Shown here in pieces: positions 3,116 to 35,923 of a stretch of 40,000 nt of DNA (position 1 is its first letter; every line of letters begins with the position of its first letter). The notes beneath the pieces are model-generated. The model was not told the origin of the DNA and made no database searches. It was given only the letters and a program-made list of their open reading frames with translations. The stretch comes from Candidatus Gracilibacteria bacterium GN02-873. Lineage in GTDB: Bacteria > Patescibacteriota > Gracilibacteria > BD1-5 > UBA2023. The position numbers were made by a program, and so were the translations under genes. Location of the stretch: positions 485,895-525,894 of the forward strand of contig MORC01000001.1 of the NCBI GenBank assembly GCA_003260345.1. Direction: 5' to 3'.

Positions 3116-6100
3116 TTATTTGAGAAGATCCGAGATTTTCAAAGTCGTTTCACCAGTCGAAATTTCTGGTTGAAGCGCTTCTTTTTGAGGATTGTCCAAA
3201 GTTTTTACATTTTCAAAAATATTCTGAACTGGCTTCATCACCGAAGAAATAATTTCCTGAAAATGTGTGATATTATAGAGAACTTTTGCTGTTTCCGCAA
3301 GCGACATATACGAATATGGTTCGAAAAGTCGTGGTTTTCCAGGCATTGGCTCACCATCAATTGTGTGACGACCATGAAGCAAACACTTATTATATGCATA
3401 CTGCACATAGCGCGCAAGTGGCGTATCTTGTTTTACATCTTCAAATGAAGAAATTTCATCTCCACTTGGAAGTTTTTCGCCAATTTTTCGAGTAAATTCT
3501 CCAAGAATTTTGGCTGCTTCACCACGAGAAATCTGATCATTTGGGCGGAAAATTTTGAGTGGATTTCCATCTTCATCAAATCGTTGTTTTCCATTTTTGT
3601 CGTACGAATCCTGACCATGCAAAGCACCAGTACGAAGCGCGTATGTAACATATTTTGCATACCAAGCATTCATATCCAAATCTTCAAAATTTTTCAAAGT
3701 GGTGATATCTTCGTTTTCGAGAGAAACAGAAGTTGCGTTCAGTACGAGTTTCAGAAATTCTACACGAGAAAGCGGGCGATGCATATTATTCTGATCAAGA
3801 ACTTGCAAAACATCATAGTATGCTGATAATTTTGGATCATCCAAATTTTTCACAGCAGAAAAACATTTTCCTTCTACGCTTGGTGCATATAGAATAGGCA
3901 CATGCCCTTCTGGAAATTCTGGTGATGGCGCGTCTGGCGCAGCCCCACCAGCTCCTGGTCATTTAATAAATGAAGTGGTTGGTGGATTTGTTGGTGGATT
4001 TGTTGGTGGATTTGTTGGTGGATTTGTTGGTGGATTTGTTGGTGGATTTGTTGGTGGATTTGTTGGTGGATTTGTTGGTGGATTTGTTGGTACACTATTT
4101 ACTGCCACTTCCACTTTAACATTCGCAATTTCACAATCAGTAGTGTGCTTTGGGCAAAGCTCATATTTAAATTGATAACTTCCTTGCGGATATTTTCCTG
4201 GATCAATCTGAAGATTTCCATTATTCATCAATGAAGCCTTTCCTTGAAAAACATCAGGAATTACTTTAAGAGTTGGAATAGAATTTTTTATTGTCGCCTT
4301 GATAGGTTGACCAGAAGATCGACGAGCCTGATCATTTGCGGGACTAACAATTCCTGTACCCTCATACTCAACACCTTCGTTAATTTGACGAGAAGATCGA
4401 AAAACCTGATCATTTGCAAGAATATCAATTTCTGTACGCTCAGAATCAACATTTTCGTCACGAGTAATGCTGCCAACATCATTTTGTGGTTGAGCTCCCA
4501 AAACCATGTAAGTTTCTGTAAAAAAGAAGAAATAACTGCTTTCACAATATTCTTGCCCATTTACTGTTGCACAAAATGTATAATCAGCCTGTCCCCCTAT
4601 GTGGTCTTCCCCACCGCCCAAAATTTTTAATTTATTATCCTCTACCGAAACTCTTCCTTCAAGATAACTTGGAAGGCTACCGAGGATAATGCGACGATTT
4701 TCGCCTGACTGTATTGATCCGAATTCATCCACAATCTTATCATTTTCCATCAAATCATAGACGACTTCTGGATTTTCCTCATCTTCCATTCGCTCAATAG
4801 CAATATAATCAGCCTGAGCTTCTGCATGGTATTTTGCCTCACCTTTTCGGACATTAACTTGCAATGTAATCACTAATGATTCACATGCGTGCTTCCCTTT
4901 TGGTGAATCGCCACACAATGTATATGGAATACGATATTCTCCAGCTGGATATTTGGATGCAGCAAGCTTCAAAGTTTTACCATCAAGTGAAATTTTTCAT
5001 TTCAATTCGGCTGGCATATCTGATTCATTGAGGGTAGTAGAAACATTTTCAATGCCAATATCTTCGTATGTATAGTAATTCAGAGCATAAAATGATACAC
5101 CCTTAGCAATCTCAAAAGTCATTTCATCAAAAGAGGAATCTTCTTGTCGTGTAATTGAAATTTTATCATCCTGAACACGCAAATACGAGGTATCGGGCTC
5201 CACATATTCTTTAATTTCTACAAAAATTTTCGCATCTGTACATGAAGATTTGATTTTGCCAGGAATTTCATTGGCACAAAGGGTATATGTAAATTCATAT
5301 GTTCCATCAGGTGCAGAATTTTCAATCACAACAAAATCTCCCTTATCAGTTAAATACGAACCTTTCAGTGGATGATTTCCTGTAATAGTACCAATAATAT
5401 TTCTTGTTACTGTTTTATCTTTTTCGTCAGCCTGAATGGATTTTGGTGTTGTGTCAACACCGTATTCAAGCGCTGGATCAGAATTTGGCACTACTTTGAG
5501 TTGAAAAGTAGAATTTTCTGGCGTAGCAAAGTGATAATCAGAATTATTATCAGAATCCCAAAAACCATCAAAACCAACTACATTTTGCTTATATTCTGGT
5601 GTCTCATACCCAGAGGAATGTGTAGTGCGAATCCAATCATCAGTCGGACTTACAGTCCAAGATTTTATTTTTGCTGGTTCAGTAGTCTCAGTGGAGGCCG
5701 TACCAGTCGAAACAGCACCAGTTGATGCGGCTGCACCAAAACCCGTTGCAATCCCATTTTCTGCCGACTCATCCGCAAATGCGTTCCACAAAAAAATCGA
5801 AGAACACACAAAAAGTACCGATAAAATCTGCACTATTCGTTTCATTCTGGGAGAAATATTGGTTTTCAAAGAAGTCATTGTTGGTGGATTTGTTGGTGGA
5901 TTTGTTGGTGGATTTGTTGGTGGATTTGTTGGTGCACTATTTACTGCCACTTCCACTTTAACATTCGCAATTTCACAATCAGTAGCGTGCTTTGGGCAAA
6001 GCTCATATTTAAATCGATAACTTCCTTGCGGATATTTTCCTGGATCAATCTGAAGTTTTCCATTATTCATCAATGAAGCCTTTCCTTGAAAAACATCAGG

Positions 6101-7642
6101 AATTACTTTAAGAGTTGGAATAGAATTTTTCATTGTCGCCTTGATAAGTTGACCGGAAGATCGACGAACCTGATCATTTGCGAGAATATCAATTTCTGTA
6201 CGCTCAGAATCAACATTTTCGTCACGAGCAATGCTGCCAACATCATTTTGTGGTTGAGCTCCCCAAACCATGTAAGTTTCTGTAAAAATCACGAAATAAC
6301 TGCTTTCACAATATTCTTGCCCATTTACTGTTGCACAAAATGTATAATTAGCTTGTCCCCCTATGTCGTCTTTCCCACCGCCCAAAATTTTTAATGTATT
6401 ATCTTCTACCACAACTCTTCCTTCAAGATTACTTGGAAGGCTACCGAGGATAATGCGACGCTTTTCGCCTGGCTGTGTTCATCCGAATTCATCCACAATC
6501 TTATCATTTTCCATCAAATCATAGACGACTTCTGGATTTTCCTCATCTTCCATTCGCTCAATAGTAATATAATCAGCCTGGGCTTCTGCATGGTATTTTG
6601 CCTCACCTTTTCGGACATTAACTTGCAATGTAATCACTAATGATTCACATGCATGCTTCCCTTTTGGTGAGTTGCCACACAATGTATATGGAATACGATA
6701 TTCTCCAGCTGGATATTTGAATGCAGCAAGCTTCAAGGTTTTACCATCAAGTGAAATTTTTCATTTCAATTCGGCTGGTATAGCTGATTCATTGGGGGCA
6801 GTAGAAACATTTTCAATGCCAATATCTTCGTATGTACCGTAATTCAGATCATAAAATGATGCACCCTTAGCAATCTCAAAAGTCATTTCATCGAAAGAGG
6901 AATCTTCTTGTCGTGTAATTGAAAATTTATCATCATGACCACGCAAATACGAGGTATCGGGCTTCACATATTCTTTAATTTCTACAAAAATTTTCGCATC
7001 TGCACATGAAGATTCCATTTGGTCAGGAATTTCATTGGCACAAAGGATATATGTAAATTCATATGTTCCATCAGGTGCAGAATTTTCAATCACAACAAAA
7101 TCTCCCTCATCAGTTAAATACGAACCTTTCAGTGGATGATTTCCTGTAATAGTACCAATAATATTTCTTGTTACTGTTTTGCCTTTTTCTTCAGCCTGGA
7201 TGGATTTTGGTGTTGTGTCAACATCATATTCAAGTGCTGGATCAGAATTTGGCACTACCATGAGTTGAAAAGTAGAATTTTCTGGCGTAGCAAAGTGATA
7301 ATCAAAATAATTATAAGGATCCCAAAAACTATCAGAACCAATTATATTTTGCTTATATTCTGGTGTCTCATACCCAGAGGAATGTGTAGTGTAAATCCAA
7401 TCATCAGTCGGACTTACAGTCCAAGATTGCATTTTTGCTGGTTCAGTAGGCCCAACGAACACCACACCAGTCGAAACAGCACCAGTTGATGCGGCTGTAC
7501 CAGAACCCGTTTCAGTCCCATTTTCTGCCGACTCATCCGCAAATGCATTCCACAAAAAAATCGAAGAACACACAAAAAGTACCGATAAAATCTGCACTAT
7601 TCGTTTCATTCTGGGAGAAATATTGGTTTTCAAAGAAGTCAT
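3116..7642 (-). CDS. giant SLH-anchored cell-surface protein with internal tandem duplication (1508 codons in code 25)
   Basis: Track ORFs 3116-3901, 3959-4972, 4997-6412, 6479-6736 and 6761-7735 share one frame and are separated only by TGA (3959, 4997, 6479, 6761). I checked the gap codons and found no TAA or TAG. At 6479 the paralogous codon in the other unit is TCC inside an open frame. I take the start at ATG 7640-7642, which gives the signal peptide MTSLKTNISPRMKRIVQILSVLFVCSSIFLWNAFA. The protein has eight Cys-pair modules (G.Y.F.Y.LC...C..A.V.V), (PTNP)n linkers and C-terminal SLH-like repeats (F.DV...W..YV.YA...G...G). Confidence 0.7.
3975..4091. repeat. 12-bp tandem array, about 9.5 units (ttggtggatttg), encoding (PTNP)n
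   Basis: Perfect 12-bp units run from 3979 to 4086 with partial units at both ends. The array lies inside the surface-protein CDS, and the other frames give the spurious QQIH and GGFV track ORFs. Confidence 0.95.
3979..5878. repeat. tandem duplication unit B (~1.90 kb)
   Basis: Collinear with 5879-7642: signal peptide, four Cys-pair modules and a PTNP array. It is longer than unit A by five PTNP units (60 bp) and a 78-bp internal duplication. Confidence 0.9.
5879..7642. repeat. tandem duplication unit A (1764 bp)
   Basis: The ATG at 7640-42 and the ATG at 5876-78 are exactly 1764 bp (588 codons) apart. The sequence is highly similar to unit B along its whole length. Confidence 0.9.
5881..5933. 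repeat. 12-bp tandem array, about 4.5 units, encoding (PTNP)n
   Basis: The same ttggtggatttg unit as at 3975-4091, with 4 full copies. It is followed directly by the internal ATG and signal-peptide codons. Confidence 0.95.
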
Positions 7643-7808
7643 TTTATAAAAGATTACGAAATACCTCTGTAAGATATCATATTTTTTTCGAATTTGCAAA
7701 AATCCAGATATTTCAAAATTTTTTACTATTGACAATTTTATTTTTTATTGTAATAAATTTATAAAATTTTCCAGGAAAAATTATTTCAAAAATTTTTTGA
7801 CAAAAAAT

Positions 7809-24741: not shown

Positions 24742-25041
24742 TTACATTCCAGGAATATTGAGACCCATCTGCCCCATCACTCCACGCATACGATCTGCGG
24801 CGATTTCCTGAGCCTTTTTCATTCCCTTGTTTACTGCTTCAGTAACAGCTTTTTCGATTTTTTCTTTATCACCGATAATGGAAGTATCTTCGATCTCAGT
24901 TTTTACCACCTTGAGCTGACCATCAATCGTCACCACGAGTCCATCAACTTCCGCTTCAATGTGCGTATTAGAAAGTTCTTCCTGAATTTTTTGCGCTTGT
25001 TGCTGCAACTTCATCAATTCTTGTGCTTGTTTGAAATCCAT
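24742..25041 (-). CDS. ybaB: nucleoid-associated protein YbaB/EbfC
   Basis: Uninterrupted 99-aa ORF. MKLQQQAQKIQEEL...VEAEVDGLVVTIDGQLKVVKTEI...AVTEAVNKGMKKAQE and the PGM C-terminus are typical of the family. Confidence 0.88.
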   Translation of the reverse strand: MDFKQAQELMKLQQQAQKIQEELSNTHIEAEVDGLVVTIDGQLKVVKTEIEDTSIIGDKEKIEKAVTEAVNKGMKKAQEIAADRMRGVMGQMGLNIPGM

Positions 25042-25065
25042 AATAAAAAATTATAAAACGCGGAA

Positions 25066-25093
25066 ATTATAGAGAAAAAATTTGAAAAAGCAA
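25066..25093 (-). promoter_or_regulatory. sigma70-like promoter for ybaB
   Basis: Minus strand: TTGCTT (25093-25088), N16, TATAAT (25071-25066), 25 nt upstream of the ATG. The -35 lies inside the left 28-bp direct repeat. Confidence 0.55.
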
Positions 25094-25112
25094 ATTTTTA
25101 GGCTTGCATTTT
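25085..25112. repeat. left copy of 28-bp direct repeat (aaaaagcaaatttttAggcttgcatttt)
   Basis: 27 of 28 positions are identical to 29483-29510 in the same orientation. The flanks outside the repeat are unrelated. Confidence 0.85.
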
Positions 25113-25135
25113 AGTTTAAAAGTATTCTATTTTAT

Positions 25136-26119
25136 TTATTTTAAATTTTCTTTAAAAAATATTTCTAACTTATTAAATGGAATGATCCCTGCTTTATTGT
25201 CATAAAAGTCAGTATGTTTAGCATTAGAAATAACAAGTAATTCTTTATTTTCTGTTCCTATAGCTTTATAGGTGTCTTCACTCATATAACGAGAATGAGA
25301 ATTTTCTCCTGCAATAATAAGAGTTGGAACATTGATTTCATTTATATATGATAACAAAGGAAAATTCATAAATGAAAGTAATGTTGTAGCTGTCCAAACT
25401 TGATTAGAAACTGAACGTTCATGAAAACCTCTTGAAGTTTTATAAAAATCTATGTAATCTTTTAAAAATTGTGGAGCTCCTTCAGGTGCAGCTTCAGGTA
25501 AAGGTTGACCTTTGGTAGGTATTCCTGTTTCAGCATCTATCCAACGAAGCTCATTAAGTGAACGCTTCATTTCCAAACGCATTTCAGGTGTATTGCTGTC
25601 AAAATATCCCTTACTAAAAATACGTGACATATCATACATTACTATTGTTGCTACTGCCTTTATACGTGTATCTATAGCTGTAGCATTAAGAGCAAATCCT
25701 CCCCAACCACAAATACCAATAATTCATATTTTTTCTCTATCCACAAAGACTTGAAGTCCCAAACAATCAACAGCAGCAGAAAAATCTTCAGTATTGATAT
25801 CAGGAGAAGCTACATTACGAGGCTCTCCTCCACTTTCACCTGTATAAGAAGGATCAAAAGCCAAAGTTACAAATCACCTCTCTGCCATTGTTTGTGCATA
25901 AAAACCTGAAGCTTGTTCTTTTACTGCTCCAAATCCACCACAAATAGCAAGAGCAGAAAGTTTCTTATCTTCAATATCTTTTGGGAAATATAAATCTCCA
26001 ACAAGATTAATACCATAGCGGTTTTTAAATGATATTTTTTGATGATTAACTTTATCACTTTGTGGAAAAATTTTATCCCAGCAAACATCATACATTGATG
26101 TTTTTTTGTTTGTATTCAT
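25136..26119 (-). CDS. alpha/beta hydrolase (dienelactone-hydrolase / YcjY-like)
   Basis: Track ORFs 25136-25639 and 25874-26119 plus 25640-25873 form one frame across TGA at 25724 and 25874. The product reads AER-G-FVTLAFDPSYTGESGGEPR and KI-G-IIGICGWGG (nucleophile elbow with Cys). Confidence 0.75.
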
Positions 26120-26212
26120 ATTTTTAAACTTTAATTTTATTTATTTTGTAAGTTTCCAATAAATATTTTTTATATTATTATTACTATAATTTTGTTAATA
26201 ATAAAATTTATT

Positions 26213-27004
26213 TTATTTAATTTTTCTGCCCAAATCCTTTCCATAAATACATATTATAATAATAGTTACTATGATAATTATTCCATAGGCTATCATTCCT
26301 TCTCCCAATTCGTATGTAGAGCGTCCACCGGGGTAATTGGTACGAGCCGTATTGGCAATTGTATGACACAAAATAAGTGCAAAGACCGAAGCATAAGTAT
26401 TGTTAAACAACCATACATATAATACTCTAACTGCTACTGTACCAAGCAATCCCCAAATAATAAGCAGAGGTGTTTGTCCTATTTGTATCATAGAATTCAG
26501 ATGCCACAATGCCCAAGGCACTCAAATTATCAATGCTGTCATCAAAGAATTATAATTTTTCTGTAATGCTTCTGTTGCATAAGCCGCATAACCCAATTCC
26601 TCTACGGTTGCTGCTATAAAAAACATAACAATTGTTCCTAACAATGCCATAAGAGAAGGAAAAACAAATTTTTCCACAGAAAATCCTGATAAATCTTGTA
26701 CAATAAATGTCAAAACATACAAAAAAGGAAAGAGAAAGACAGCAACCCACAACCATTTTTTATTTCGTATGCGAGAAATATCAAAAGTACGAGCAAAAAG
26801 ATGTTTAACAGCTTGCGTTCCACCCTCTTTGTATCTCAAAATAGCTGCTGCAATCATAGGTGTAAGTGCGGCTCCAATATCAGTTAGAGGTAAATTATCT
26901 GGTAAATTACTTCCTTGTATATAATATGAGGCAATCCAAAAAGGCAAGCTCATTACCCAAACAAGTATAAAAAATTTCCATGGATGAGAAGGAGTTGTTT
27001 GCAT
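26213..27004 (-). CDS. CPBP family intramembrane glutamic endopeptidase (Abi/CAAX-protease-like)
   Basis: Track ORFs 26213-26521 and 26522-27004 join across the TGA at 26522-24. The protein is multi-pass hydrophobic and carries ATVEELGYAAY (EE..R-type motif 1), ALWHL (motif 2) and LCHTIAN (motif 3). Confidence 0.7.
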
Positions 27005-27119
27005 ATGTATTGTATTTAAAAATTAAAACAGCTTATAAAACAATGTCCAATTAACCATTTGTCACTTCACTGAAATGAAAATTTCTACTTTGGATGAGTC
27101 TCCGTTTTGTGATTTTTCA

Positions 27120-27135
27120 CCATTGATATCAGTGG
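27120..27135. promoter_or_regulatory. imperfect 16-bp palindrome, possible operator
   Basis: ccaTtgatatcaGtgg is symmetric around GATATC with one mismatched pair. It lies in the 189-bp gap upstream of the CPBP gene at 26213-27004. Confidence 0.25.
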
Positions 27136-27193
27136 CTATTTTTAAATAAGTTATAATTATTCTATTGATTTTTTAAAAAAAAGAAAGTTTAAA

Positions 27194-28048
27194 TTACTTA
27201 TTTTGTTGTCTGTCCCTTTTTTTACGAATTTTCCTCAAATACAATCCAACACATAAATATATTGTCAATGGAATTATTCACAAGCTTGGGGAAATCAGCC
27301 AATTGTATTCAGGGGGAATATTTACAAATCCTTCTGAGATAAGTGGATTTAAGGAATCTTCCATTGTGTGCATCAAAACCACTAGCCAAAGCGAACGTGA
27401 AAGGAAAAATATTTCAGTGTACATAATCGTCCAAACTCCAATCACAAAAAATCCTGTTATAACAAACAAAACTTCACCATAAGGGAAAAACTTTGCAAGA
27501 TAAGCATCATCTAAAAATATCAAATAATATGGTAAATGCCAGATTTGCCATACTAAAGCCACAACCAAATATATTAACCATTCATTTTTAGTAAGTTGCT
27601 CCATTTTTACAGTTAAATAGCCTCTCCAAACTGATTCTTCAAATATATTTTTGATAAATTCAGGCAAAAAAGCAGCTGCAAAAATAGGCAAATATGCAAC
27701 AATACTAAATTTGCTTGCATCTGCCCAACCCATCAAATTTCCAAAAAACAATGTTACACCAATTACTACAGGATAGATTGCAAAAGCAAGCAGATACCAA
27801 TAAGTATTTTGTTTGAAATTTGGCTTTATGGGAAGGTCTTTCCAGCCATCTCCTCCAAAAAGACGAAGTAAAATCGTACATAAAAGTGGTGTAGCAATAA
27901 AAATCAAAGCTCCAGGTGATTCCAAATTTGAAGGTTCCCCAAGCAAATTATTTACACCAACACCTATCCAACCACAAATAACAGCAATAAAGCTAAATAT
28001 TGCAACATTTCTAAAAGTTTTTTTATTAGTTTTCATTTTGTTAATCAT
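27194..28048 (-). CDS. CPBP family intramembrane glutamic endopeptidase (second copy)
   Basis: Track ORF 27278-28048 reads through the TGA at 27278-80 to the TAA at 27194-96. Motifs are FEESVWRGY, WQIWHLPYY and VLMHTMEDS. It is multi-pass hydrophobic and overlaps the upstream gene end by 8 nt. Confidence 0.72.
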
Positions 28049-28865
28049 TAGAATTACTATTTATTGGCTTTCCAGATATAAAACTCTTGACTATATTGTT
28101 AAAATCCTCAGCATTGTCCATATTAGCACAATGTCCCGCATTTTTAATGATGACAAGATTACTATTTGTCGGCTCGTCATTGTACCACTGTTTAGCGGCT
28201 TTTATCATTAATTCACTATCTTTCTCACCAACCAAAATTAATAATGGAAAGCTTCTTTGAACAATCCTGTCAGCCATCAACTTGTTTAATCCAGACATAG
28301 TATCAAATGATTTTCTTGAGAAATGTTTCGCACTTTCATAAAGTCGGATTTGCTCAGTTGGATTTATAGCAGAAGTTTTCGCAACATATTTACGAAATGA
28401 ATCCATTGAAAAAATCATTTTAAACAGCCATTTAAAAATTTCTTTGCCTTGTGCTTTGGCAATTTCTTTCTGCTCCTTATTGATATTATAGCCTCCAAGA
28501 GCTGTTAGAGATAATATTTTATCAGGATATTTTAGTGCAAAATCTTGTGCAAGCAATGAACCAAGGGAAACTCAGATAATATGCAGTTTGTCTTTATTCT
28601 CAACTTTGAGAATTTCTGCAATATGTGTGGTAGTGTCAATGAGCTTGTCTTTTGATTTTCCTACACCTGTCAAACCGTGTCCTAACATATCAAGTGTGAT
28701 TACCTGATAATCTTGGGAGACGAAATCTATCTGTTTATCAAAACATCTGTGATCACTAAAAGCAGGATGCAGAAAAACTATTGTTTCTCCACTCTCTTTT
28801 CCACTCACATAATAATGAATAGTATTTCCATTATTTTCTATAGTCTTGTGTTTCATATTATTCAT
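28041..28865 (-). CDS. alpha/beta hydrolase (GxSxG serine hydrolase)
   Basis: Track ORFs 28041-28556 and 28572-28865 join across the TGA at 28572-74, which supplies the first Gly of the elbow HII-G-VSLGS. VFLHPAFSDHRCF is the oxyanion region, and the C-terminal NAGHCANMD carries the catalytic His. Confidence 0.8.
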
Positions 28866-28871
28866 ATTTTT

Positions 28872-29405
28872 TTAATTATAATCTCTAATAATCTCCAAAA
28901 TCTTCTCTTCATCATAAACAAACATTCCAACAGCTACCAGAGAAGCTATACCATGAGCCAACATCCATGATCTAGAAAAAATATTTTTTATTCCTTTATC
29001 AGACATTTTTTGAAAATCCTCAGTATTTTTCATTAACTCTATAACTTCCTCATTTTCAGGAATAATATCAGTCATTTTCACTTTCATAATATTGTCTATA
29101 TAAACTGCTTTGAATAGAGCAGGTTCGATGTGAGCCATATGCACATATCCAAGCCCCAAGTCCAAAAATGGATTGCCTGTTTTTTTGTATTGACACATAG
29201 TATTTTTGAGATGTGACAAAGCTTTTTGACAAACTTCAGCTTTGAGATCATCCATATTTTTGTATGACCAATAAATCGGTTGTGTAGAACAACCTATTTT
29301 CTTAGCAATATTTCGAGCTGAAAGCACTGCAAATCCTTCTTTTCTAACCATTTCAAAGGCTGTCTTTATAATGATTTCTTTGGTAATTGTCATCGATTTT
29401 GGCAT
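28872..29405 (-). CDS. TetR/AcrR family transcriptional regulator
   Basis: Uninterrupted 177-aa ORF with the N-terminal TetR HTH IIKTAFEMVRKEGFAVLSARNIAKKIGCSTQPIYWSYKNMDDL. Confidence 0.85.
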   Translation of the reverse strand: MPKSMTITKEIIIKTAFEMVRKEGFAVLSARNIAKKIGCSTQPIYWSYKNMDDLKAEVCQKALSHLKNTMCQYKKTGNPFLDLGLGYVHMAHIEPALFKAVYIDNIMKVKMTDIIPENEEVIELMKNTEDFQKMSDKGIKNIFSRSWMLAHGIASLVAVGMFVYDEEKILEIIRDYN

Positions 29406-29431
29406 ATTTTTAATATTATAACTTATGTAAT

Positions 29432-29445
29432 ATAACAGCTGTTAT
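29432..29445. promoter_or_regulatory. perfect 14-bp palindrome, candidate TetR operator
   Basis: ATAACAGCTGTTAT lies 6 nt downstream (minus strand) of the predicted -10 and 26 nt upstream of the tetR ATG. Confidence 0.45.
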
Positions 29446-29451
29446 GCAATA

Positions 29452-29479
29452 ATAATATTAAAATCTAAAAAAATGTCAA
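29452..29479 (-). promoter_or_regulatory. sigma70-like promoter of the TetR cassette
   Basis: Minus strand: TTGACA (29479-29474), N16, TATTAT (29457-29452). Confidence 0.5.
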
Positions 29480-29482
29480 AAT

Positions 29483-29510
29483 AAAAAGCAAATTTTTTGG
29501 CTTGCATTTT
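29483..29510. repeat. right copy of 28-bp direct repeat (aaaaagcaaatttttTggcttgcatttt)
   Basis: 27 of 28 positions are identical to 25085-25112. Confidence 0.85.
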
Positions 29511-29529
29511 TCACAAAAAAATTTATAGT
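29502..29529 (+). promoter_or_regulatory. sigma70-like promoter for the lapA-like gene
   Basis: TTGCAT (29502-07, inside the right direct repeat), N16, TATAGT (29524-29), 19 nt upstream of the ATG at 29549. Confidence 0.4.
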
Positions 29530-29548
29530 GTGAAAAATAATTTTTTCT

Positions 29549-29836
29549 ATGTCACGTTTTTCTCTCAAAAATATTTCATTTTCACAGATTCTTGGAATCA
29601 TCGCGCTCGTTTTGCTCATCACATTCGTCATGCAAAATCTCAGTAACGTGTCTGTCAAATTCATTCGTTGGACTTTTGATATTCCCATTTTTTTGCTAAT
29701 TATTATTGTATTTTTTGTTGGTTTTTATACGTCCATTTTTACTGGTTCTGGTCTTGAAAAATTTTTTAAGAAAAAAGAAACCTACGAGGTTGATCTGAAA
29801 AAAATCTCTGAAAATGCCAAAAATACTGAAAAATAA
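29549..29836 (+). CDS. LapA-domain (DUF1049) small membrane protein
   Basis: Uninterrupted 95-aa ORF with two hydrophobic helices flanking QNLSNVSVKFIRWTFDIP, as in the LapA/DUF1049 domain. Confidence 0.6.
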   Translation: MSRFSLKNISFSQILGIIALVLLITFVMQNLSNVSVKFIRWTFDIPIFLLIIIVFFVGFYTSIFTGSGLEKFFKKKETYEVDLKKISENAKNTEK

Positions 29837-29858
29837 AATCCCCATTTGGGGATTTTTT
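29835..29858. terminator. bidirectional hairpin terminator
   Basis: aaaatcccc-attt-ggggatttt plus tt lies between convergent genes. Confidence 0.65.
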
Positions 29859-30126
29859 ATACATATTTGAGAGCGATTTCTATGCTTTCACGAGCCGTTT
29901 CGTGCTGATTCACAAAAAGATTGTACGCGCCATCTTCGGACAAAACTCCACACGCAACTTCTGATGGAATAGCACCATTATTGAATGCGTCAGAATCTTC
30001 AAACCACTTAGCAGAACTATAATATTCTGACAATTTTTGGAAATTTTCAAAATTTTCGAGCCATTTTTGTTGAGCGTCTTGAAGATTTTCCAGGATTTTT
30101 TGTGTTTCATTGAGAATTCGTTCCAT
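29857..30126 (-). CDS. DUF4298-like small protein
   Basis: This is the C-terminal 89 codons of track ORF 29857-30312, starting at ATG 30124-26. The rest of that ORF overlaps murI. YYSSAKWFEDSDAFNNGAIPSEVACGVLSEDGAYNL matches the DUF4298 core (YY.S..W..D...G.lp....GVLSED..Y). The start is uncertain. Confidence 0.55.
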   Translation of the reverse strand: MERILNETQKILENLQDAQQKWLENFENFQKLSEYYSSAKWFEDSDAFNNGAIPSEVACGVLSEDGAYNLFVNQHETARESIEIALKYV

Positions 30127-30166
30127 CTCAACAATGCGATCAATTTGTTTTGGTTCATAATTATTA

Positions 30167-30883
30167 TTAGGAAATATTAATAAATTTTTGATTTTTTGAA
30201 AGCATTTTTTCAATTTCTGGATGTCTTTCAAGATACGAAACAAATTGAAGAGCGGACTCATAAGACGGATTGACAATTTTTTGTTGTGGGAAAATCTTTT
30301 CAAAAATATCAATTATATAACTATAATGCGTGCATCCAAGAACAATTGCATCCACTGAAAAATCAATTTTTCCCACCGTTTTTTGAATATATTTTTCTAA
30401 AAAATCACGAGAAATTTTTTTCTGTAAAAATTGTTCAATAAAGCCAGCAAGTTCTGGCAAAGCAATTTCCTGCACTTGAATATTTTCATCAAGCAAATGA
30501 ATTCTTTTTGTGTATACAAGACTATTTACAGACGATTTGGTCGCAAAAATAACGACTTTTTTACAACGCAAGTCAAAAATTTTTTCAGCTCATGGAATTG
30601 TGACACCAAGAATCTTTACTCACAAAATTTTTTCGTTTTTTTGTAAAATTTTTATAGCGTTCGCGGTCGCGGTATTGCATGCTAAAATAATAATTTTTAC
30701 ACCCGCATTTTTTAATTTTAGAACACCTTCTGTTGTGAGTTGTATAATTTCTTGAGAATTTTTGTTGCCGTATGGGCAATTTTTGTAATCTCAAAAATAT
30801 ATGTAATCATATTCTGGAAGCAATTTTTTCACTTCATTATAAAATGTCAAACCGCCACTGCCAGAATCAAAAATTCCTATCAT
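30167..30883 (-). CDS. murI: glutamate racemase
   Basis: The ATG at 30881-83 and track ORF 30167-30571 form one frame across three TGA. The product reads [46 protein letters not shown]. Confidence 0.88.
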
Positions 30884-32808
30884 ACTATTTTTTGTTCAAT
30901 TTCGGCAATAATTTGTATATTTTCCAAAGTACTGGCATCGCCCGAAAATTTCTCACCATTTGCAAGTGTCCTGAGAATTCGGCGAACAATTTTCCCACTG
31001 CGAGTTTTTGGTAATTCAGAAATAATCACAATATTTTTGAGTGCAATGATTGGTCCGATTTCCCTTCTGAGTGATAAATTGATATTTTTGAGCAAATCAG
31101 GCTCATTGATATTTTCACCATTTTTCAACACCACAAAACCAAAAAGTGCTTCTCCAGTCATATTGTCAGGAATTCATACTAATGCACACTCAGCTACCAA
31201 TTCATCTTTTGCAACTATGTCTTCCACTTCAGCAATTCAAATTTTATGCCCTGAAATATTGACTATATCATCAACTCTTCCAGTTATAAAAATATATCAA
31301 TCTTCATCATAAAATCAGCCATCTCCAGAAAAATACAAAGCTTTTTCCTCTCTAAAAATATCTGAAAAATATGTTTTTTCAAATTTTTCATCATCTCACC
31401 AAATTCCGCGAGCCATAGCTGGCCAAGGCTTTGAAATCACGAAAAATCAATTTTCTTCAAGTCCTAATTTTTTTCAATTTTTATCCACTATTTCCCCACA
31501 AACTCCAGGCAAGGGAAATGTTGCAGATCTTTTTTTCATAGGAGTTGCAAATGGAAGAGGAGAAAGAATATGTCACCCAGTTTCTGTTTGCCAATAAGTA
31601 TCAACAATAGAGGCTTTTTTGTTTCCTACTACTTCAAAATACCAATCCCAAGTTTCACCATCAATCGGTTCTCAAACACTTCATAAAACTTTTAGACTTG
31701 AGAGATCAAAATTTTTTGGTAAATTTTCTCAAGTTTTATGTAATAATCTAATCAAAGTTGGTGCTGTATAAAATTTTGAAACTTTGTATTTTTCTATGAT
31801 TTGCCAGATTCTGTCATTTTCTGGAAAAAGTGGATTTCACTCATAAATAAGAGTTGTTCAGCCATTTAAAAGTGGTCCATAAACAGTGTAAGTATGCCCT
31901 GTAATCCAACCAATATCTGCAGTTGAGAAAAAAATATCATCTTTTTGTAAATCAAAAACCCATTTTGTTGTAAGTTTTGACCAAAGAGCATATCAGGCTG
32001 TTGAATGAATAATTCATTTTGGTTTTCCTGTTGAACCGGAAGTATACAAAATAAAGCTTGTATCTTCACTGTCTAGCCTTTCAAAATCACAAATCTCACT
32101 TTGAGAATCTATCAAGTCATTGTAAATAACATCATTTTCAGAAATATTTATTTTTTCAAAATTTCTTTTTACAACAAGCACTTTTTGTACTTTATGATTT
32201 GAATTTTTTAAAGCTTCATCAGCAATATTTTTTAAAAAATAAGGTTTTCACTTTCTAAAAGCTCAATCAGCAGTGATTAAAAAATCTGCTTTTAAATCTT
32301 CTATTCTATCTTTTAAGCTTTCTGCTGAAAAACCTCAAAAAACTACTGAATGTATAGCTCACAAACGTAAACAAGCTAGCATTAAATAAACGCTTTCTAG
32401 TATTTGAGGCATATAAAAAATAACTCTGTTTCATTTTGTAACTCACAAACTTTTTAGTAAATTTGCTGATTTATTTACATTTTTTGATAATTCTTTGTAA
32501 GTTATTTCTTGGCTATCTCATCTTTCTCACTCAAAAATAATCGCAATTTTTTCAGCATTTTCTTCTAGATTTTTATCTACTGCTTCATAACAAATATTTA
32601 GTTTTCAGTTTTTAAACCATTCTACTTTTGGAAAATTTTTATCATCTAAAATTTCAGTAAAATCTTCAAAAAAAGTGAGATTTTCTTTTGCTTGATTTGC
32701 CCAAAAATCCTCATAATTCTCCATAGAATAATCATACAATTTTTGGTATTCTTCAAAACTTTTAAAATATGCATTTTTTGCAAATTCAGCATTTGGGAAT
32801 ATTTTCAT
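30877..32808 (-). CDS. acs: acetyl-CoA synthetase (AMP-forming)
   Basis: I translated codon by codon from ATG 32806-08 to TAG 30877-79, giving 643 aa with 25 in-frame TGA. The sequence is collinear with E. coli Acs: [73 protein letters not shown]. It overlaps the murI start by 7 nt. Confidence 0.92.
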
Positions 32809-32848
32809 AGATTTTTTTAAAAAATATTTTTCATATTATAATTATAAT

Positions 32849-33427
32849 TTATAAAATTAAAATATTTTTTTGAATGATAAATTTTTCTTGGCGCAAAAAT
32901 TTTTCAGTTTCCTTTCGTAGTGGCAGTGTCACGAGAAAACCAAGCACTGCACCCGAAGTATTGAGCATCAAATCATCCACATCAAACAAACGATATGGGC
33001 ATTCGAAAAATCCAAACACGCCTGTTCCCTGCGTTAATTCAAAAAATAATGCGATGAAAAACGAAAAAATCAGTATTTTAAGAAAATTCCAACGAAAAAC
33101 AATGCTTCCCAAAAATCCAAGTGGCGAAATCAGAAGAATGTTAAAAATCACCTGAAAAAGCGCCTTACTGCGTGCTAATCCGACAGAATGTTTGGTTGCA
33201 AAAGCTGAATATCTTCAATAAATTGAAACGGCGTAAACTGTCAATCCAACATCCAGCGCGCTCAGCACAAAAATCTTGTGAAAAATCTGGAAACGGAAAA
33301 AGCACGAGCCCAAGCGCCAACAAAAGAAAAACATAAATAAATAAGTTCCCATTTTTTCAAAAATGGAAATACTTTTCTTTTTCAATAAAAAATGTGAAAT
33401 AACGACCGTAAGAGGGAAAGTGAACAA
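32849..33427 (-). CDS. VanZ-like membrane protein
   Basis: Track ORFs 32849-33151 and 33215-33427 join across the TGA at 33215-17. NILLISPLGFLG, ELTQG, RLFDVDDLMLNTSGAVLGF fit the VanZ pattern (N..lF.PlG ... E..Q ... R..d..D...N..G..lG). The start (TTG 33427 or internal ATG) is uncertain. Confidence 0.65.
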
Positions 33428-33883: not shown

Positions 33884-35923
33884 TTATTCAACCACTTCAC
33901 CTTTGAGAACCCAACGATCAAGTTCTGTAATTTTTACTTTTACAATATCACCGACAGAAATTTTTTCATCAAATGGAATAAAAATTTCTTTAAAATTTCG
34001 CGTGCGCCCAACAAGCGTTTCGTCCTTTCCTGGTCCAGAAATAAGCACTTCTTCCGTTCGTCCAATCATCAATTTGGCGCGTTTTTGAACACTTTCTTGC
34101 AAAAGTGAGTTGAGAATATTCCAGCGACGCGCCTTTTCTTCATGAGAAATATCATCACCAAATTTGTCCGTTGCAATCGTCCCAGAACGCGAAGAGTATC
34201 GTGCAATATACGCAAAATCAAATTCCAATTCTCGCATCGCGCGAACCGTCGCTTGAAATTGTTCTTCGGTTTCACCAGGAAATCCCACAATAATATCAGT
34301 CGAAATAGAAAAAAGTGGATCTTTGGAACGCAAATATTCCACCTGTTTTTTAAAATCTTCATAAGTATGACGGCGATTCATACGCGCCAAAACCTCATCA
34401 GAACCAGACTGAAGAGCAAAATGCAAATAATGACACATTTTTGAAAGCTCAAAATGTGCATCCAAAATATCGCGCGTCATGTCGTGCGGATTTGAGCTTG
34501 TAAATCGGATTCTATCACCTTTTTCGAGCGTATTCAATTCTTCCAAAAGCATTCTAAATGGTGAATGAGAAAAATTTTCCAAAATTCCCTCAAATTCATC
34601 CCAATTTTTCATAATTTTGAGGCGAGAATTTTCTGAGAAATTTTTGTTGTACGACTGAGAAAAAACAATAGTTTTTGCCTTGGTGTTCGCTAAATATCGT
34701 TCGATATGATGGGGTGCGTCATCGATTACGACATCAAACCCCAACTTGAGAGCAATATCAGATTTATCATCAGAATCCCCAAATTCCTCTGTGTAACAAA
34801 TTTTTTCAAAAAAATCCTTGCCAAAATATTTTTCCAAATATTTTTCTGTTTGATTTTTTAGAGAAAGTGGCCGAGAAGTAACGATATAAAGCGAGTGTCC
34901 GTTATTTTTTAATTTTTGTAAAACCTCGCGACAATGTTCATAAATTTTGAGATTATCATGATTTTCATAAAAATATTCAAACCATGCCTCACGAAGCGTC
35001 GGATCACCATTAAAATCGTGCGTCAAAATATCATCAATCGTGAGATTTTTGTGATGTTTTTGATTGTATCGATCGAGCAATTCTGACTCCCAAGTATGCA
35101 AAATCGTATCATCAATGTCGATTCCAATGCGGAAAATTGGGTTATTCCATTTACTTTTTTCTGCATTCCAATTTTTTCGATCGATAAATTGTTTTCCGTA
35201 ACTATTCACATTTTGCCCAAGAAGCGTGATTTCTTTGGTTCATTTTTCAAAAACATCGCGCGCTTCCGCCACGATATCAGCAATGGGGCGAGAAATTTCA
35301 CGACCGCGAGTATGTGGCACAATACAAAAAGTACAAAAATTATCACATCCCGTCTGAATAATAATATTCGCAGACGCTGGATTTTCTTGCAGTTGTTTTA
35401 CTGCCAAATATTCATTAAATTTAGCATCATTTCCAATTTCTTCGCCAGAAATCAACGACAAAATTTTCGTCAACATCGTGATTTCTTCGATTCGAAAAGT
35501 AAAATCGATTTTTTCTGAACGAATAAAAAGCTCATCATCATAATTAAAAAGCCCACTTTCGTCAGGCAAAAGCGTGATTTTGGTTGTGTTATTTCGAGCA
35601 AATTTTTCATCCAATTTTCCTTCTTCATCAACCAAATATCGACGTGCCAATCAGGATTTTCGAACCATACAACCCGTAATTCCAAAAAGTGGCGTTTTCC
35701 CTGTCTGATTTTTTTTGTGAAATCGATGAATTTCGTTCATAAAGCCAAAAACGCGATCTTCCCCTTTTTGTCGCACACTACAAGTATTCATAATCACGAT
35801 ATCCGCCTTCACTGGATCAATCACCTTTCGCATTCCTGACGAAATCAAGATCATATTGATTTTTTCGCTATCCGCGTAGTTCATCTGACATCCAAAAGTC
35901 TTTATATAAAAGGTTTTAAACAT
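33884..35923 (-). CDS. miaB: tRNA-2-methylthio-N6-dimethylallyladenosine synthase (MiaB-type) with inserted HAD/NT5C-like domain, 679 aa
   Basis: Track ORFs 35651-35923, 35240-35650 and 33884-35209 form one frame across TGA at 35651 and 35240, and the 10 gap codons have no stop. Motifs in order are [54 protein letters not shown], [insert], [34 protein letters not shown] and a TRAM-like end ([10 protein letters not shown]). Confidence 0.85.
34562..35185 (-). other. in-frame ~208-codon insert encoding an NT5C/HAD-type nucleotidase-like module within miaB
   Basis: HAD motif I is IGIDIDDT (DxDxT), motif II is YIVTSRP, and motif III/IV is K...[10 protein letters not shown], followed by the tail VFSQSYN...KNWDEF. 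The order and spacing resemble 5'(3')-deoxyribonucleotidase (YorS/NT5C) proteins. Confidence 0.6.

Follow-up and report, generated by a model that had tools for sequence, protein, structure and literature searches.

How does a complete phosphatase come to lie in frame inside the radical-SAM domain of MiaB, a well-studied radical-SAM enzyme, and what might it do there? The question is raised by one gene, here called miaB::NT5C, in a 40,000-nucleotide stretch of the genome of Candidatus Gracilibacteria bacterium GN02-873 (contig MORC01000001.1, positions 485,895 to 525,894 of the forward strand), the whole of which is referred to below as the window. That an NT5C domain is nested in MiaB we hold to be close to certain. 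For the full account that we favour, we put the probability at about 0.62: the gene would encode a bifunctional nested-domain protein with two independent activities, and the phosphatase would be a cassette spread by recombination between miaB alleles. On this account, a single 679-residue polypeptide would be made under code 25, in which a genuine MiaB houses an entire NT5C-type HAD phosphatase in a radical-SAM loop that is flexible and variable in length; the module would be a patchily distributed accessory cassette drawn from the Gracilibacteria's own family of free-standing NT5C genes, and the lineage of the window would have received cassette and flanks by homologous recombination from a miaB allele of another clade.

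The coding sequence, its two TGA codons and the domains of the host protein lie as follows (window coordinates; aa, residues of the protein).

33884..35923, minus strand: miaB::NT5C coding sequence, 679 codons plus TAA under translation table 25 (TGA = Gly).
35651..35653, minus strand: in-frame TGA at codon 91, read as Gly; aligned with the conserved G of 'VRK[ST]G' in MiaB homologues.
35240..35242, minus strand: in-frame TGA at codon 228, read as Gly; aligned with the conserved G before 'KEITLLGQN' ('xxG.KEITLL').
35651..35911, minus strand: N-terminal methylthiotransferase (MTTase, UPF0004) domain, aa 5-91; Pfam PF00919, E 2.8e-20.
35195..35371, minus strand: first part of the radical-SAM domain, aa 185-243, with CDNFCTFC at 35324-35347 and the LLGQNVNSY-strand block at 35195-35224.
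34241..34564, minus strand: second part of the radical-SAM domain (SPFR...), aa 454-561; Pfam Radical_SAM, aligned to residue 231 of 7mjv onward.
33890..34072, minus strand: C-terminal TRAM domain, aa 618-678; Pfam PF01938, E 9.1e-15.

Read from 35923 to 33884 on the minus strand, the frame has the two TGA codons as its sole interruptions and ends in TAA. Table 11 splits it into three open reading frames (ORFs), and database gene calls in the lineage of the window are truncated at TGA (P0001, for example, has 441 aa). The neighbouring ftsZ also contains an in-frame TGA that needs read-through, and many database homologues have W at positions where Gly is expected, residues that we read as TGA mis-translated as Trp. 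Because the TGAs stand on conserved Gly positions, ftsZ has its own in-frame TGA and database homologues show W for G, code 25 is supported as the right reading of miaB::NT5C. An earlier note on this DNA had proposed a single 679-codon ORF with TGA as Gly, which the placement of both TGAs on conserved Gly bears out, and had described the codon usage of the insert as like that of its flanks, in agreement with a GC content at third codon positions (GC3) of 0.307 for the insert and 0.306 for the host. The closest genomes (L001 and L002) are labelled Candidatus Gracilibacteria, one of them explicitly an oral metagenome-assembled genome (MAG). In public annotation such genes appear as 'MiaB/RimO family radical SAM methylthiotransferase', without mention of a phosphatase.

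Outside the insert, the protein has the marks of a MiaB-type methylthiotransferase with a complete set of cluster ligands. The auxiliary-cluster cysteines C12, C48 and C85 lie in the motifs FGCQMN, NTCSVR and GCMV, which are kept in all insert-bearing homologues; the radical-SAM CxxxCxxC motif is present as CDNFCTFC at aa 193-200, and the six cluster-ligand cysteines are retained in 11/11 full-length insert-bearing hosts examined. Pfam Radical_SAM (PF04055, E 9.4e-29) matches in two stretches on either side of the NT5C domain, the better of them at aa 451-561, and the MiaB landmarks that had been noted as all present and in order are recovered as UPF0004, a split Radical_SAM and TRAM. The NCBIfam subfamily model TIGR00089 (MiaB/RimO) scores 383 bits against a cut-off of 251, and the MiaB equivalog model TIGR01574 falls marginally below its cut-off (350.9 vs 355.3 bits) because its match is split in three by the insert; the MtaB and RimO models (262 and 207 bits) stay far under their own cut-offs. 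The best match in the PDB is MiaB of B. uniformis (7mjv; E 3.5e-69, 237 bits, compared with 144 bits for RimO), aligned in three blocks such that query residue 244 corresponds to residue 222 of the chain and query residue 455 to residue 231. A loop of 8 residues in 7mjv thus corresponds to about 210 residues in the window protein (aa 244-455). Separately from the insert, about 34 extra residues lie between the MTTase and radical-SAM domains relative to B. uniformis MiaB (88 vs 54; aa 92-176, window 35395-35650); this longer linker occurs in all Gracilibacteria MiaBs examined, with or without the insert, and includes a conserved 'DDxLFxRxxxIDFxFRIEE' block.

The added segment and its catalytic motifs occupy these positions.

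35144..35194, minus strand: loop extension native to Gracilibacteria MiaBs, aa 244-260, from the comparison of flanks; of the S-clade type (see below) and predicted flexible (predicted local distance difference test, pLDDT, 45-50).
34565..35143, minus strand: nested NT5C-type HAD phosphatase domain, aa 261-453, from Pfam PF06941, the fold model and the motifs.
35105-35119, minus strand: HAD motif I, DIDDT (D269-I-D271-D-T273).
34871-34882, minus strand: HAD motif II, VTSR (T349).
34757-34771, minus strand: Lys of HAD motif III, DDKSD (K387).
34706-34726, minus strand: HAD motif IV, IDDAPHH (D401, D402).

Alignment with insert-free Gracilibacteria MiaBs, which have a 17-residue loop extension followed by a short loop (e.g. 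GKQFVDKKHWNEEKSKWN-DGLGK-SPFR), places the insert after the LLGQNVNSY strand and before the SPFR helix of the radical-SAM domain, where 193 aa stand in place of about 5 loop residues ('DGLGK'). Insert-free orthologues bridge the two radical-SAM halves with 5 aa, and in the window protein the parent domain is split by a complete domain. Of the roughly 208 extra residues that had been reported (34562-35185), the C-terminal boundary stood, and the N-terminal boundary lay 17 residues too far out. The insert opens with N-N-P-I-F-R and closes with F-S-H; its limits match those of free-standing NT5C proteins (MKKKFGIDIDDT ... NWSEINI*), running from just after their start to just before their stop, which points to a capture the size of a whole gene. 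The residue before [ST]PFR varies between lineages (Q, T, K, R or V). No Hint/intein family was among the Pfam matches at E <= 1 for the window protein, and we rejected an intein reading, since a Hint profile, a terminal Asn and an N-terminal Cys/Ser are all missing and the residues at the junctions differ between lineages. A search of the insert junctions for target-site duplications or terminal repeats gave only short AT-rich matches; a 13-nt repeat (34597-34609 and 35164-35176), which encodes 'KNW' in the host flank and in the C-terminal helix of the NT5C domain, was judged to be chance, NW being a conserved NT5C feature.

Several lines of evidence identify the insert as a phosphatase domain. 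Pfam NT5C (PF06941) matches aa 266-446 with E 2.4e-12 (47.6 bits in context and 50.4 alone; cut-off 24.8), covering model positions 4-172 of 180, and HAD_2 is matched too. The Pfam order is the one that the earlier note had predicted, UPF0004, a Radical_SAM split in two with NT5C between the halves, and TRAM, and its central claim of a complete NT5C/HAD module in frame inside the radical-SAM domain is upheld by this pattern together with the fold. It had also named DxDxT, motif II and motif IV of the 5'(3')-deoxyribonucleotidase type; all four HAD motifs are in fact present, and they are kept in 13/13 inserts examined. In an alignment of 51 NT5Cs, the columns D10, D12, T90, K128, D142 and D143 are invariant or nearly invariant, and the window protein has D269, D271, T349, K387, D401 and D402 there. 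An AlphaFold2 (AF2) model of the insert alone, built with 50 NT5C homologues, has a pLDDT of 92.4 and a predicted template modelling score (pTM) of 0.88 and shows a Rossmann-like core with a helical cap. Its best PDB match by Foldseek is the putative 5'(3')-deoxyribonucleotidase of S. epidermidis (3bwv; E 5.5e-10, template modelling (TM) score 0.70/0.80), and the human mitochondrial (mdN) and cytosolic (cdN) deoxyribonucleotidases follow at TM 0.65-0.71, the matches including 1q92, 1mh9 and 2jao; a profile of the NT5C alignment matches 3bwv at E 1.5e-26. The structure prediction that the earlier note had suggested thus shows the insert as an autonomous domain. A model of the insert in context (aa 229-679, 451 aa; pLDDT 87.7) is confident for both the insert and the rest of the modelled MiaB and matches both MiaB/RimO (E 1.8e-24) and mdN (TM 0.71 to target); in it, the N-terminal tether has a pLDDT of 45-50, and the C-terminal junction runs as helix, three residues, helix. 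We conclude from the models that the nested NT5C domain is predicted to be complete and to fold autonomously, with intact catalytic residues. By analogy with its family, it is presumably a Mg2+-dependent (deoxy)nucleoside-monophosphate phosphatase.

Both parts of the gene appear to be maintained. Between the window gene and two close relatives, dN/dS (nonsynonymous relative to synonymous substitution rate) is 0.09-0.13 for the insert and 0.02-0.03 for the host domains, with equal dS (0.25-0.44). Since dN/dS is low in both parts and dS is equal, these rates indicate that insert and host are both under purifying selection and have been inherited together in the clade of the window. Because the cluster ligands are kept and purifying selection on the host is very strong, the MiaB part is presumably functional and would still make 2-methylthio-N6-isopentenyladenosine at position 37 (ms2i6A37) on tRNA.

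The architecture recurs in at least 12 further full-length genes of Gracilibacteria. In a scan of one genome per species, queried with a 3-sequence insert alignment, ten genomes of the Gracilibacteria lineage had insert-like sequence, and 10/10 had it inside a full-length miaB and at the same site (L001-L010). Together with L078, the full-length embedded genes encode 670-700 aa when read from DNA and contain 2-28 in-frame TGAs; among database proteins, P0182 and P0184 have the same architecture and, like L078, represent further lineages. A search across the junctions gave fragments as well as homologues that align with the full query at 53% identity. The inserts of L001 and L002 are 93-95% identical to that of the window, and the P0001 cluster has 183 member sequences. 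The suggestion to look for the same architecture in other Gracilibacteria was therefore rewarded, and an assembly chimera, raised beforehand as a possible objection, finds no support in a gene seen in many independent assemblies; nor do ordinary MiaBs already hold such a segment, or the insert lack an NT5C profile match (PF06941, aa 266-446), the other two objections raised. Overall, the architecture is rare: when the insert was scanned with HMMER against 1.84 billion representative proteins, the best 150 matches were almost all free-standing proteins of 185-205 aa, and only two among those 150 were full-length embedded representatives. Our literature search found nothing linking MiaB or methylthiotransferases with an NT5C/HAD insertion, or describing such a gene in Gracilibacteria. 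The insertion of one domain into another is in itself a known phenomenon, and the parents, MiaB and NT5C, are both known families; it is their nesting for which we found no published description.

Within the Gracilibacteria, the distribution of the insert is patchy. In neighbour-joining trees built on protein distances from the host portion only, and in a second run also without the tract aa 244-470, insert-bearing MiaBs were not monophyletic. Insert-bearing L003 pairs with the insert-free P0006 (88% host identity; bootstrap 1.0), and insert-bearing L005 groups with three insert-free proteins (bootstrap 0.98). The window group, L078 (with insert) and three insert-free proteins form one clade (bootstrap 0.945), within which L078 joins the insert-free members and not the window group (bootstrap 0.98). 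Fitch parsimony requires at least 8 changes of insert state and gives an insert-free root. The window and the insert-free L076 share the same arrangement of ftsZ (83% aa identity), ftsA (82%) and miaB, and L003 and the insert-free L075 share clpP, an aminoacyl-tRNA synthetase, miaB and a transporter of the major facilitator superfamily (MFS). Because these loci are syntenic, the insert-bearing and insert-free genes are, as far as gene order tells, orthologues and not paralogues, and the insert appears dispensable in orthologues. The insert-free members of each clade have conserved short loops ('xGxGK-SPFR' or 'xxDVK-TPFR'), which independent deletions would not recreate.

A second kind of evidence concerns the route by which the insert reached the lineage of the window. 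Gracilibacteria MiaBs fall into two clades, told apart partly by the loop extension: the T-type loop reads GKET.KKLWN.EELTW ... TPFR, and the S-type loop, 2 aa longer, reads GKQF.D.K.WNEEK.KWN ... SPFR. The backbone of the window protein belongs to the T clade, being nearer T at aa 1-229 and 549-679 and carrying the T state at 15/19 clade-diagnostic sites. The diagnostic sites around the insert (aa 245, 258 and 454) are all S, so that the pattern along the protein is eleven T, three S and four T. At aa 244-263, each of 45 S-clade proteins is nearer the window protein than any of 48 T-clade proteins, and in the loop-extension segment identity to the window is 0.60 for S against 0.33 for T, with complete separation. 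Given 4 S among 19 sites, the chance that the three bracketing sites would all be S is 16/3876, or about 0.004. We delimit the foreign segment as follows.

34514..35194, minus strand: approximate recombinant tract, aa 244 to about 470, comprising the insert and both S-type flanks inside a T-clade miaB.

The breakpoints are only loosely bounded: one lies within aa 229-245, the other within aa 454-549. L078, a related T-clade gene with 80% host identity, has its insert between T-type flanks on both sides. Because a T-clade backbone carries S-type flanks around the insert, the sequence argues that an S-clade miaB allele gave the lineage of the window both the insert and the stretches directly beside it, presumably by homologous recombination, the obvious mechanism.

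Where the cassette came from before it entered miaB is indicated by its nearest relatives outside MiaB, the free-standing NT5C genes P0122, P0124 (= L074), P0125 (= L073) and P0181. These are 42-52% identical to the inserts and thus as close to them as the inserts of different lineages are to each other. At the DNA level, L073 and L074 each have their own ATG, their own TAA/TAG stop and unrelated neighbours, and L074 contains in-frame TGA = Gly codons and therefore comes from a recoded genome; inserts of other lineages likewise have TGA codons inside them. The nearest free-standing NT5Cs share with the inserts a 'TSR ... DDAPHH' signature that distant NT5Cs do not have. The distant forms (25-32% identity) occur in other Patescibacteria, DPANN archaea and Firmicutes. 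In the insert tree, P0122, L074 and P0125 fall among the inserts, P0122 and L074 grouping with L005 at a bootstrap of 0.77; the split between ingroup and outgroup has a bootstrap of 0.76. Because the inserts and L074 hold TGA codons and the free-standing forms nest among the inserts, the donor NT5C family was probably one of the recoded lineage itself. As a separate observation, P0261 (366 aa) has a distant NT5C domain (34% identical, residues 172-354) C-terminal to about 165 aa that look Nudix-like by eye ('GGKME...EVFEEVG').

The loop itself is permissive. In other MiaBs of the Gracilibacteria this loop is 5 to about 38 residues long, with sequences that are unrelated and often of low complexity. 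P0054, a T-clade MiaB of the Gracilibacteria type (JGI, 581 aa), has a complete DUF559 domain in it at residues 224-330; the match to PF04480, which has a Vsr-like endonuclease fold, has E 5.4e-32 and covers model positions 3-108 of 109. The presence of two unrelated globular domains at the same site suggests that it is tolerant and not specifically adapted to the phosphatase. Of the two ideas offered earlier as speculation, a tolerated insertion in a surface loop is thus the one that gains support, from the variable length of the loop, the dispensable insert and the DUF559 domain in another lineage; the other, coupling to thiomethylation, gains none. Since the loop accepts varied sequence, orthologues exist without the insert and related NT5Cs occur as separate genes, the two activities are most likely independent, in a tolerated 'domain within a domain'.

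Smaller additions were also seen in these proteins. Peptides of the form 'P.L.KGG.G..F' recur in different loops of different Gracilibacteria MiaBs. The miaB of L075 (6001-7473) has an extra segment in a TRAM loop, KVPEPVEAEKEIASLNKGGTGKAEGLKV, and like peptides occur in the radical-SAM loop of P0019, P0022, P0029, P0054 and P0057. A perfect GC-rich hairpin, CCTCCCTTAATAAGGGAGG, encodes the 'SLNKGG' part of the L075 segment, which over its 105 nt has a predicted fold of -29.8 kcal/mol and a GC content of 0.46, compared with 0.40 across the gene. In the sister L003, another palindrome, ATGTCCAAAGGACAT, stands in the corresponding position. By analogy with the Rickettsia palindromic elements, these palindromes may be a small in-frame palindromic element.

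Some points weigh against the account given above, in which a bifunctional protein with independent activities carries a cassette spread by recombination. The case for recombination rests on a short tract, namely 17 flank residues, a 2-aa indel and 3 clade-diagnostic sites; some of the database sequences in the trees are mis-translated (TGA as W) or truncated; and the context model, with a pTM of 0.68 and lacking the N-terminal 228 residues, does not fix the orientation of the domains. In the clade of the window, moreover, the insert has changed at 3-4 times the rate of its host (host identities of 98, 91 and 86% vs insert identities of 94, 71 and 59%), so that low insert identity between similar hosts is not independent proof of separate acquisition. 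For this reason the mismatch between host and insert identities (L003/P0002, 79% vs 39%; window/P0013, 82% vs 43%) counts for less as such proof. Finally, every embedded copy found occupies one and the same loop of MiaB, even where host identity falls to about 56%. This could reflect selection for coupling, in which the nested phosphatase would share a substrate or pathway with MiaB, whether it bound or processed a nucleotide moiety of the tRNA anticodon loop, cleared a phosphorylated inhibitor or served as a nucleotide-sensing domain gating methylthiolation. Such coupling could further appeal to the strict conservation of the catalytic motifs, to the tight C-terminal junction, which passes from helix to helix over 3 residues, and to the position of the insertion after the strand with the GQN motif, as the loops that follow strands in radical-SAM barrels lie on the catalytic face. 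We nevertheless consider coupling, in any of these variants, unlikely. The orthologous MiaBs of sister lineages do without the insert and have a 5-aa loop; near relatives of the insert are free-standing and have unrelated neighbours; the N-terminal tether is predicted to be disordered; and in other lineages the loop is taken up by an unrelated DUF559 domain or by low-complexity peptides. In established radical-SAM chemistry, the by-products of MiaB (5'-deoxyadenosine, S-adenosylhomocysteine and methionine) include no phosphomonoester on which the phosphatase could act, and spread by recombination would explain the constant site on its own.

Movement and descent can also be told differently. 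The insert could be a selfish in-frame element, intein-like without splicing, that passes, actively and at a specific site, from one miaB allele to another and to or from a free-standing form, having colonised a permissive loop of a conserved gene from which only precise deletion would be tolerated. The patchy distribution with its at least 8 state changes, the nesting of free-standing among embedded forms (bootstrap 0.77), the occurrence of the insert in both T-type and S-type flank contexts, the mosaic window gene and the Vsr-like endonuclease fold of the DUF559 domain in the same loop of P0054 all fit this idea, yet we doubt it seriously, as the cassette has no endonuclease, integrase or transposase, no Hint/intein profile, no terminal repeats or target-site duplications, and variable junction residues; the strict conservation of the phosphatase residues and a dN/dS of about 0.1 argue for selection on the enzyme itself, and inserts of different lineages are only 36-46% identical, which implies that any movement was old and rare. 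One insertion, made long ago in the ancestor of the Gracilibacteria MiaBs and followed by vertical descent with many losses and no transfer, would account for the co-divergence of host and insert within clades (L007/L008, 86% and 82%; L007/L009, 81% and 78%), for the equal dS of both parts in the window clade and for flanks that in most insert-bearing genes match their own clade, and a fast insert rate could account for the identities of roughly 40%. We find it improbable all the same: vertical descent cannot give a T-clade backbone S-type flanks, the conserved short loops of insert-free members would not be regenerated by independent deletions, the parsimony root is insert-free, and free-standing forms lie inside the diversity of the inserts. 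An artefact or a decaying gene (an assembly chimera, a pseudogene, or three ORFs with genuine TGA stops) we regard as scarcely credible. The three ORFs under table 11 and the truncated gene calls of the lineage, such as the 441 aa of P0001, might suggest it, but the gene is continuous in independent assemblies (L001, L002, the P0001 cluster of 183 and ten further lineages), its TGAs stand on conserved Gly positions, both parts have the same dS and a dN/dS far below 1, and insert and host have the same GC3.

A bolder extension of the preferred reading, which is possible and which we put forward as tentative, is that NT5C, and perhaps DUF559 too, is a gene-sized cassette that cycles between a free gene and the miaB loop and is spread by recombination via the conserved flanks. 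If true, this would be an intein-like lifestyle without splicing or homing, in which genome-reduced, recoded bacteria would use miaB, a housekeeping gene, as a 'landing pad' for accessory enzymes and as the vehicle of their expression.

Under the account of an independent, recombining cassette, the locus would matter in several ways. The toleration of a 22-kDa enzyme in the MiaB loop after the SAM-binding strand would mark a permissive site for protein engineering and show the capacity of the fold; to our knowledge, nested domains inside the radical-SAM barrel are unusual. In Gracilibacteria, small-genome, TGA-recoded and host-dependent bacteria of the human mouth and elsewhere, an accessory enzyme of nucleotide metabolism would be carried, expressed and exchanged inside a housekeeping gene, and the exchange of a single domain between diverged alleles by recombination is rarely documented. 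There is also a warning for annotation, as the phosphatase goes uncounted in metabolic reconstructions when the gene is labelled only MiaB/RimO or is truncated at TGA.

The gene neighbourhood (ftsA, ftsZ, a VanZ-like protein, an acetyl-CoA synthetase and a racemase) was uninformative on function. Relative to the window at ~33840, just downstream of miaB, L002, the oral MAG with a MiaB 97% identical, has about 3.8 kb of extra DNA (L002 7263-11032) between miaB and the next shared gene. At window positions 25000-33000, GC content is 0.26-0.33 vs 0.35-0.43 elsewhere in the window; this region contains a TetR-family regulator, two alpha/beta hydrolases, two Rce1/CAAX-type proteases, a racemase and an acetyl-CoA synthetase and may be an acquired island. 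A 1542-codon ORF (code 25) on the minus strand at 3116-7744 has an internal duplication of about 1.76-1.84 kb, with 300-nt blocks 93-97% identical at spacings of 1764 and 1842 nt, and two 12-nt tandem arrays, (TGGATTTGTTGG)n, one at 3983-4090 and one at 5885-5932; on the coding strand these give a repeat of four residues (PTNP in one register), and its product is probably a large repetitive surface protein.

Compared with known systems, the window protein is like B. uniformis MiaB (PDB 7mjv-7mjz) in its MTTase/radical-SAM/TRAM layout, its three N-terminal cysteines and its CxxxCxxC motif, and differs from it by a 193-aa segment in place of a short linker, a 17-aa loop extension and about 34 extra interdomain residues. 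The insert is like the NT5C deoxyribonucleotidases (human mdN, 1mh9 and 1q92; cdN, 2jao and 2i7d; 3bwv; and those of phages and Firmicutes) in core, cap, motifs I-IV and size; unlike the solved structures, to which it is 17-21% identical, it is embedded and belongs to a Gracilibacteria-centred 'TSR ... DDAPHH' subfamily. With P0122, L074, L073 and P0181 it shares both termini and signature, and those are separate genes. The Acinetobacter MtlD dehydrogenase/phosphatase (PDB 7ocr-7ocu), which was among the fold matches, likewise joins a HAD domain covalently to an unrelated enzyme; MtlD, however, is a terminal fusion that unites two steps of one pathway, whereas the HAD domain of the window protein is nested in the catalytic domain of a partner with which no shared pathway is evident. 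Inteins offer a parallel in behaviour, being in-frame insertions at one precise site of a housekeeping gene, sporadic in distribution and transferred between alleles; the insert differs from them in having no Hint domain, splice residues or homing endonuclease and in being, as far as its sequence tells, a metabolic enzyme kept in the mature protein.

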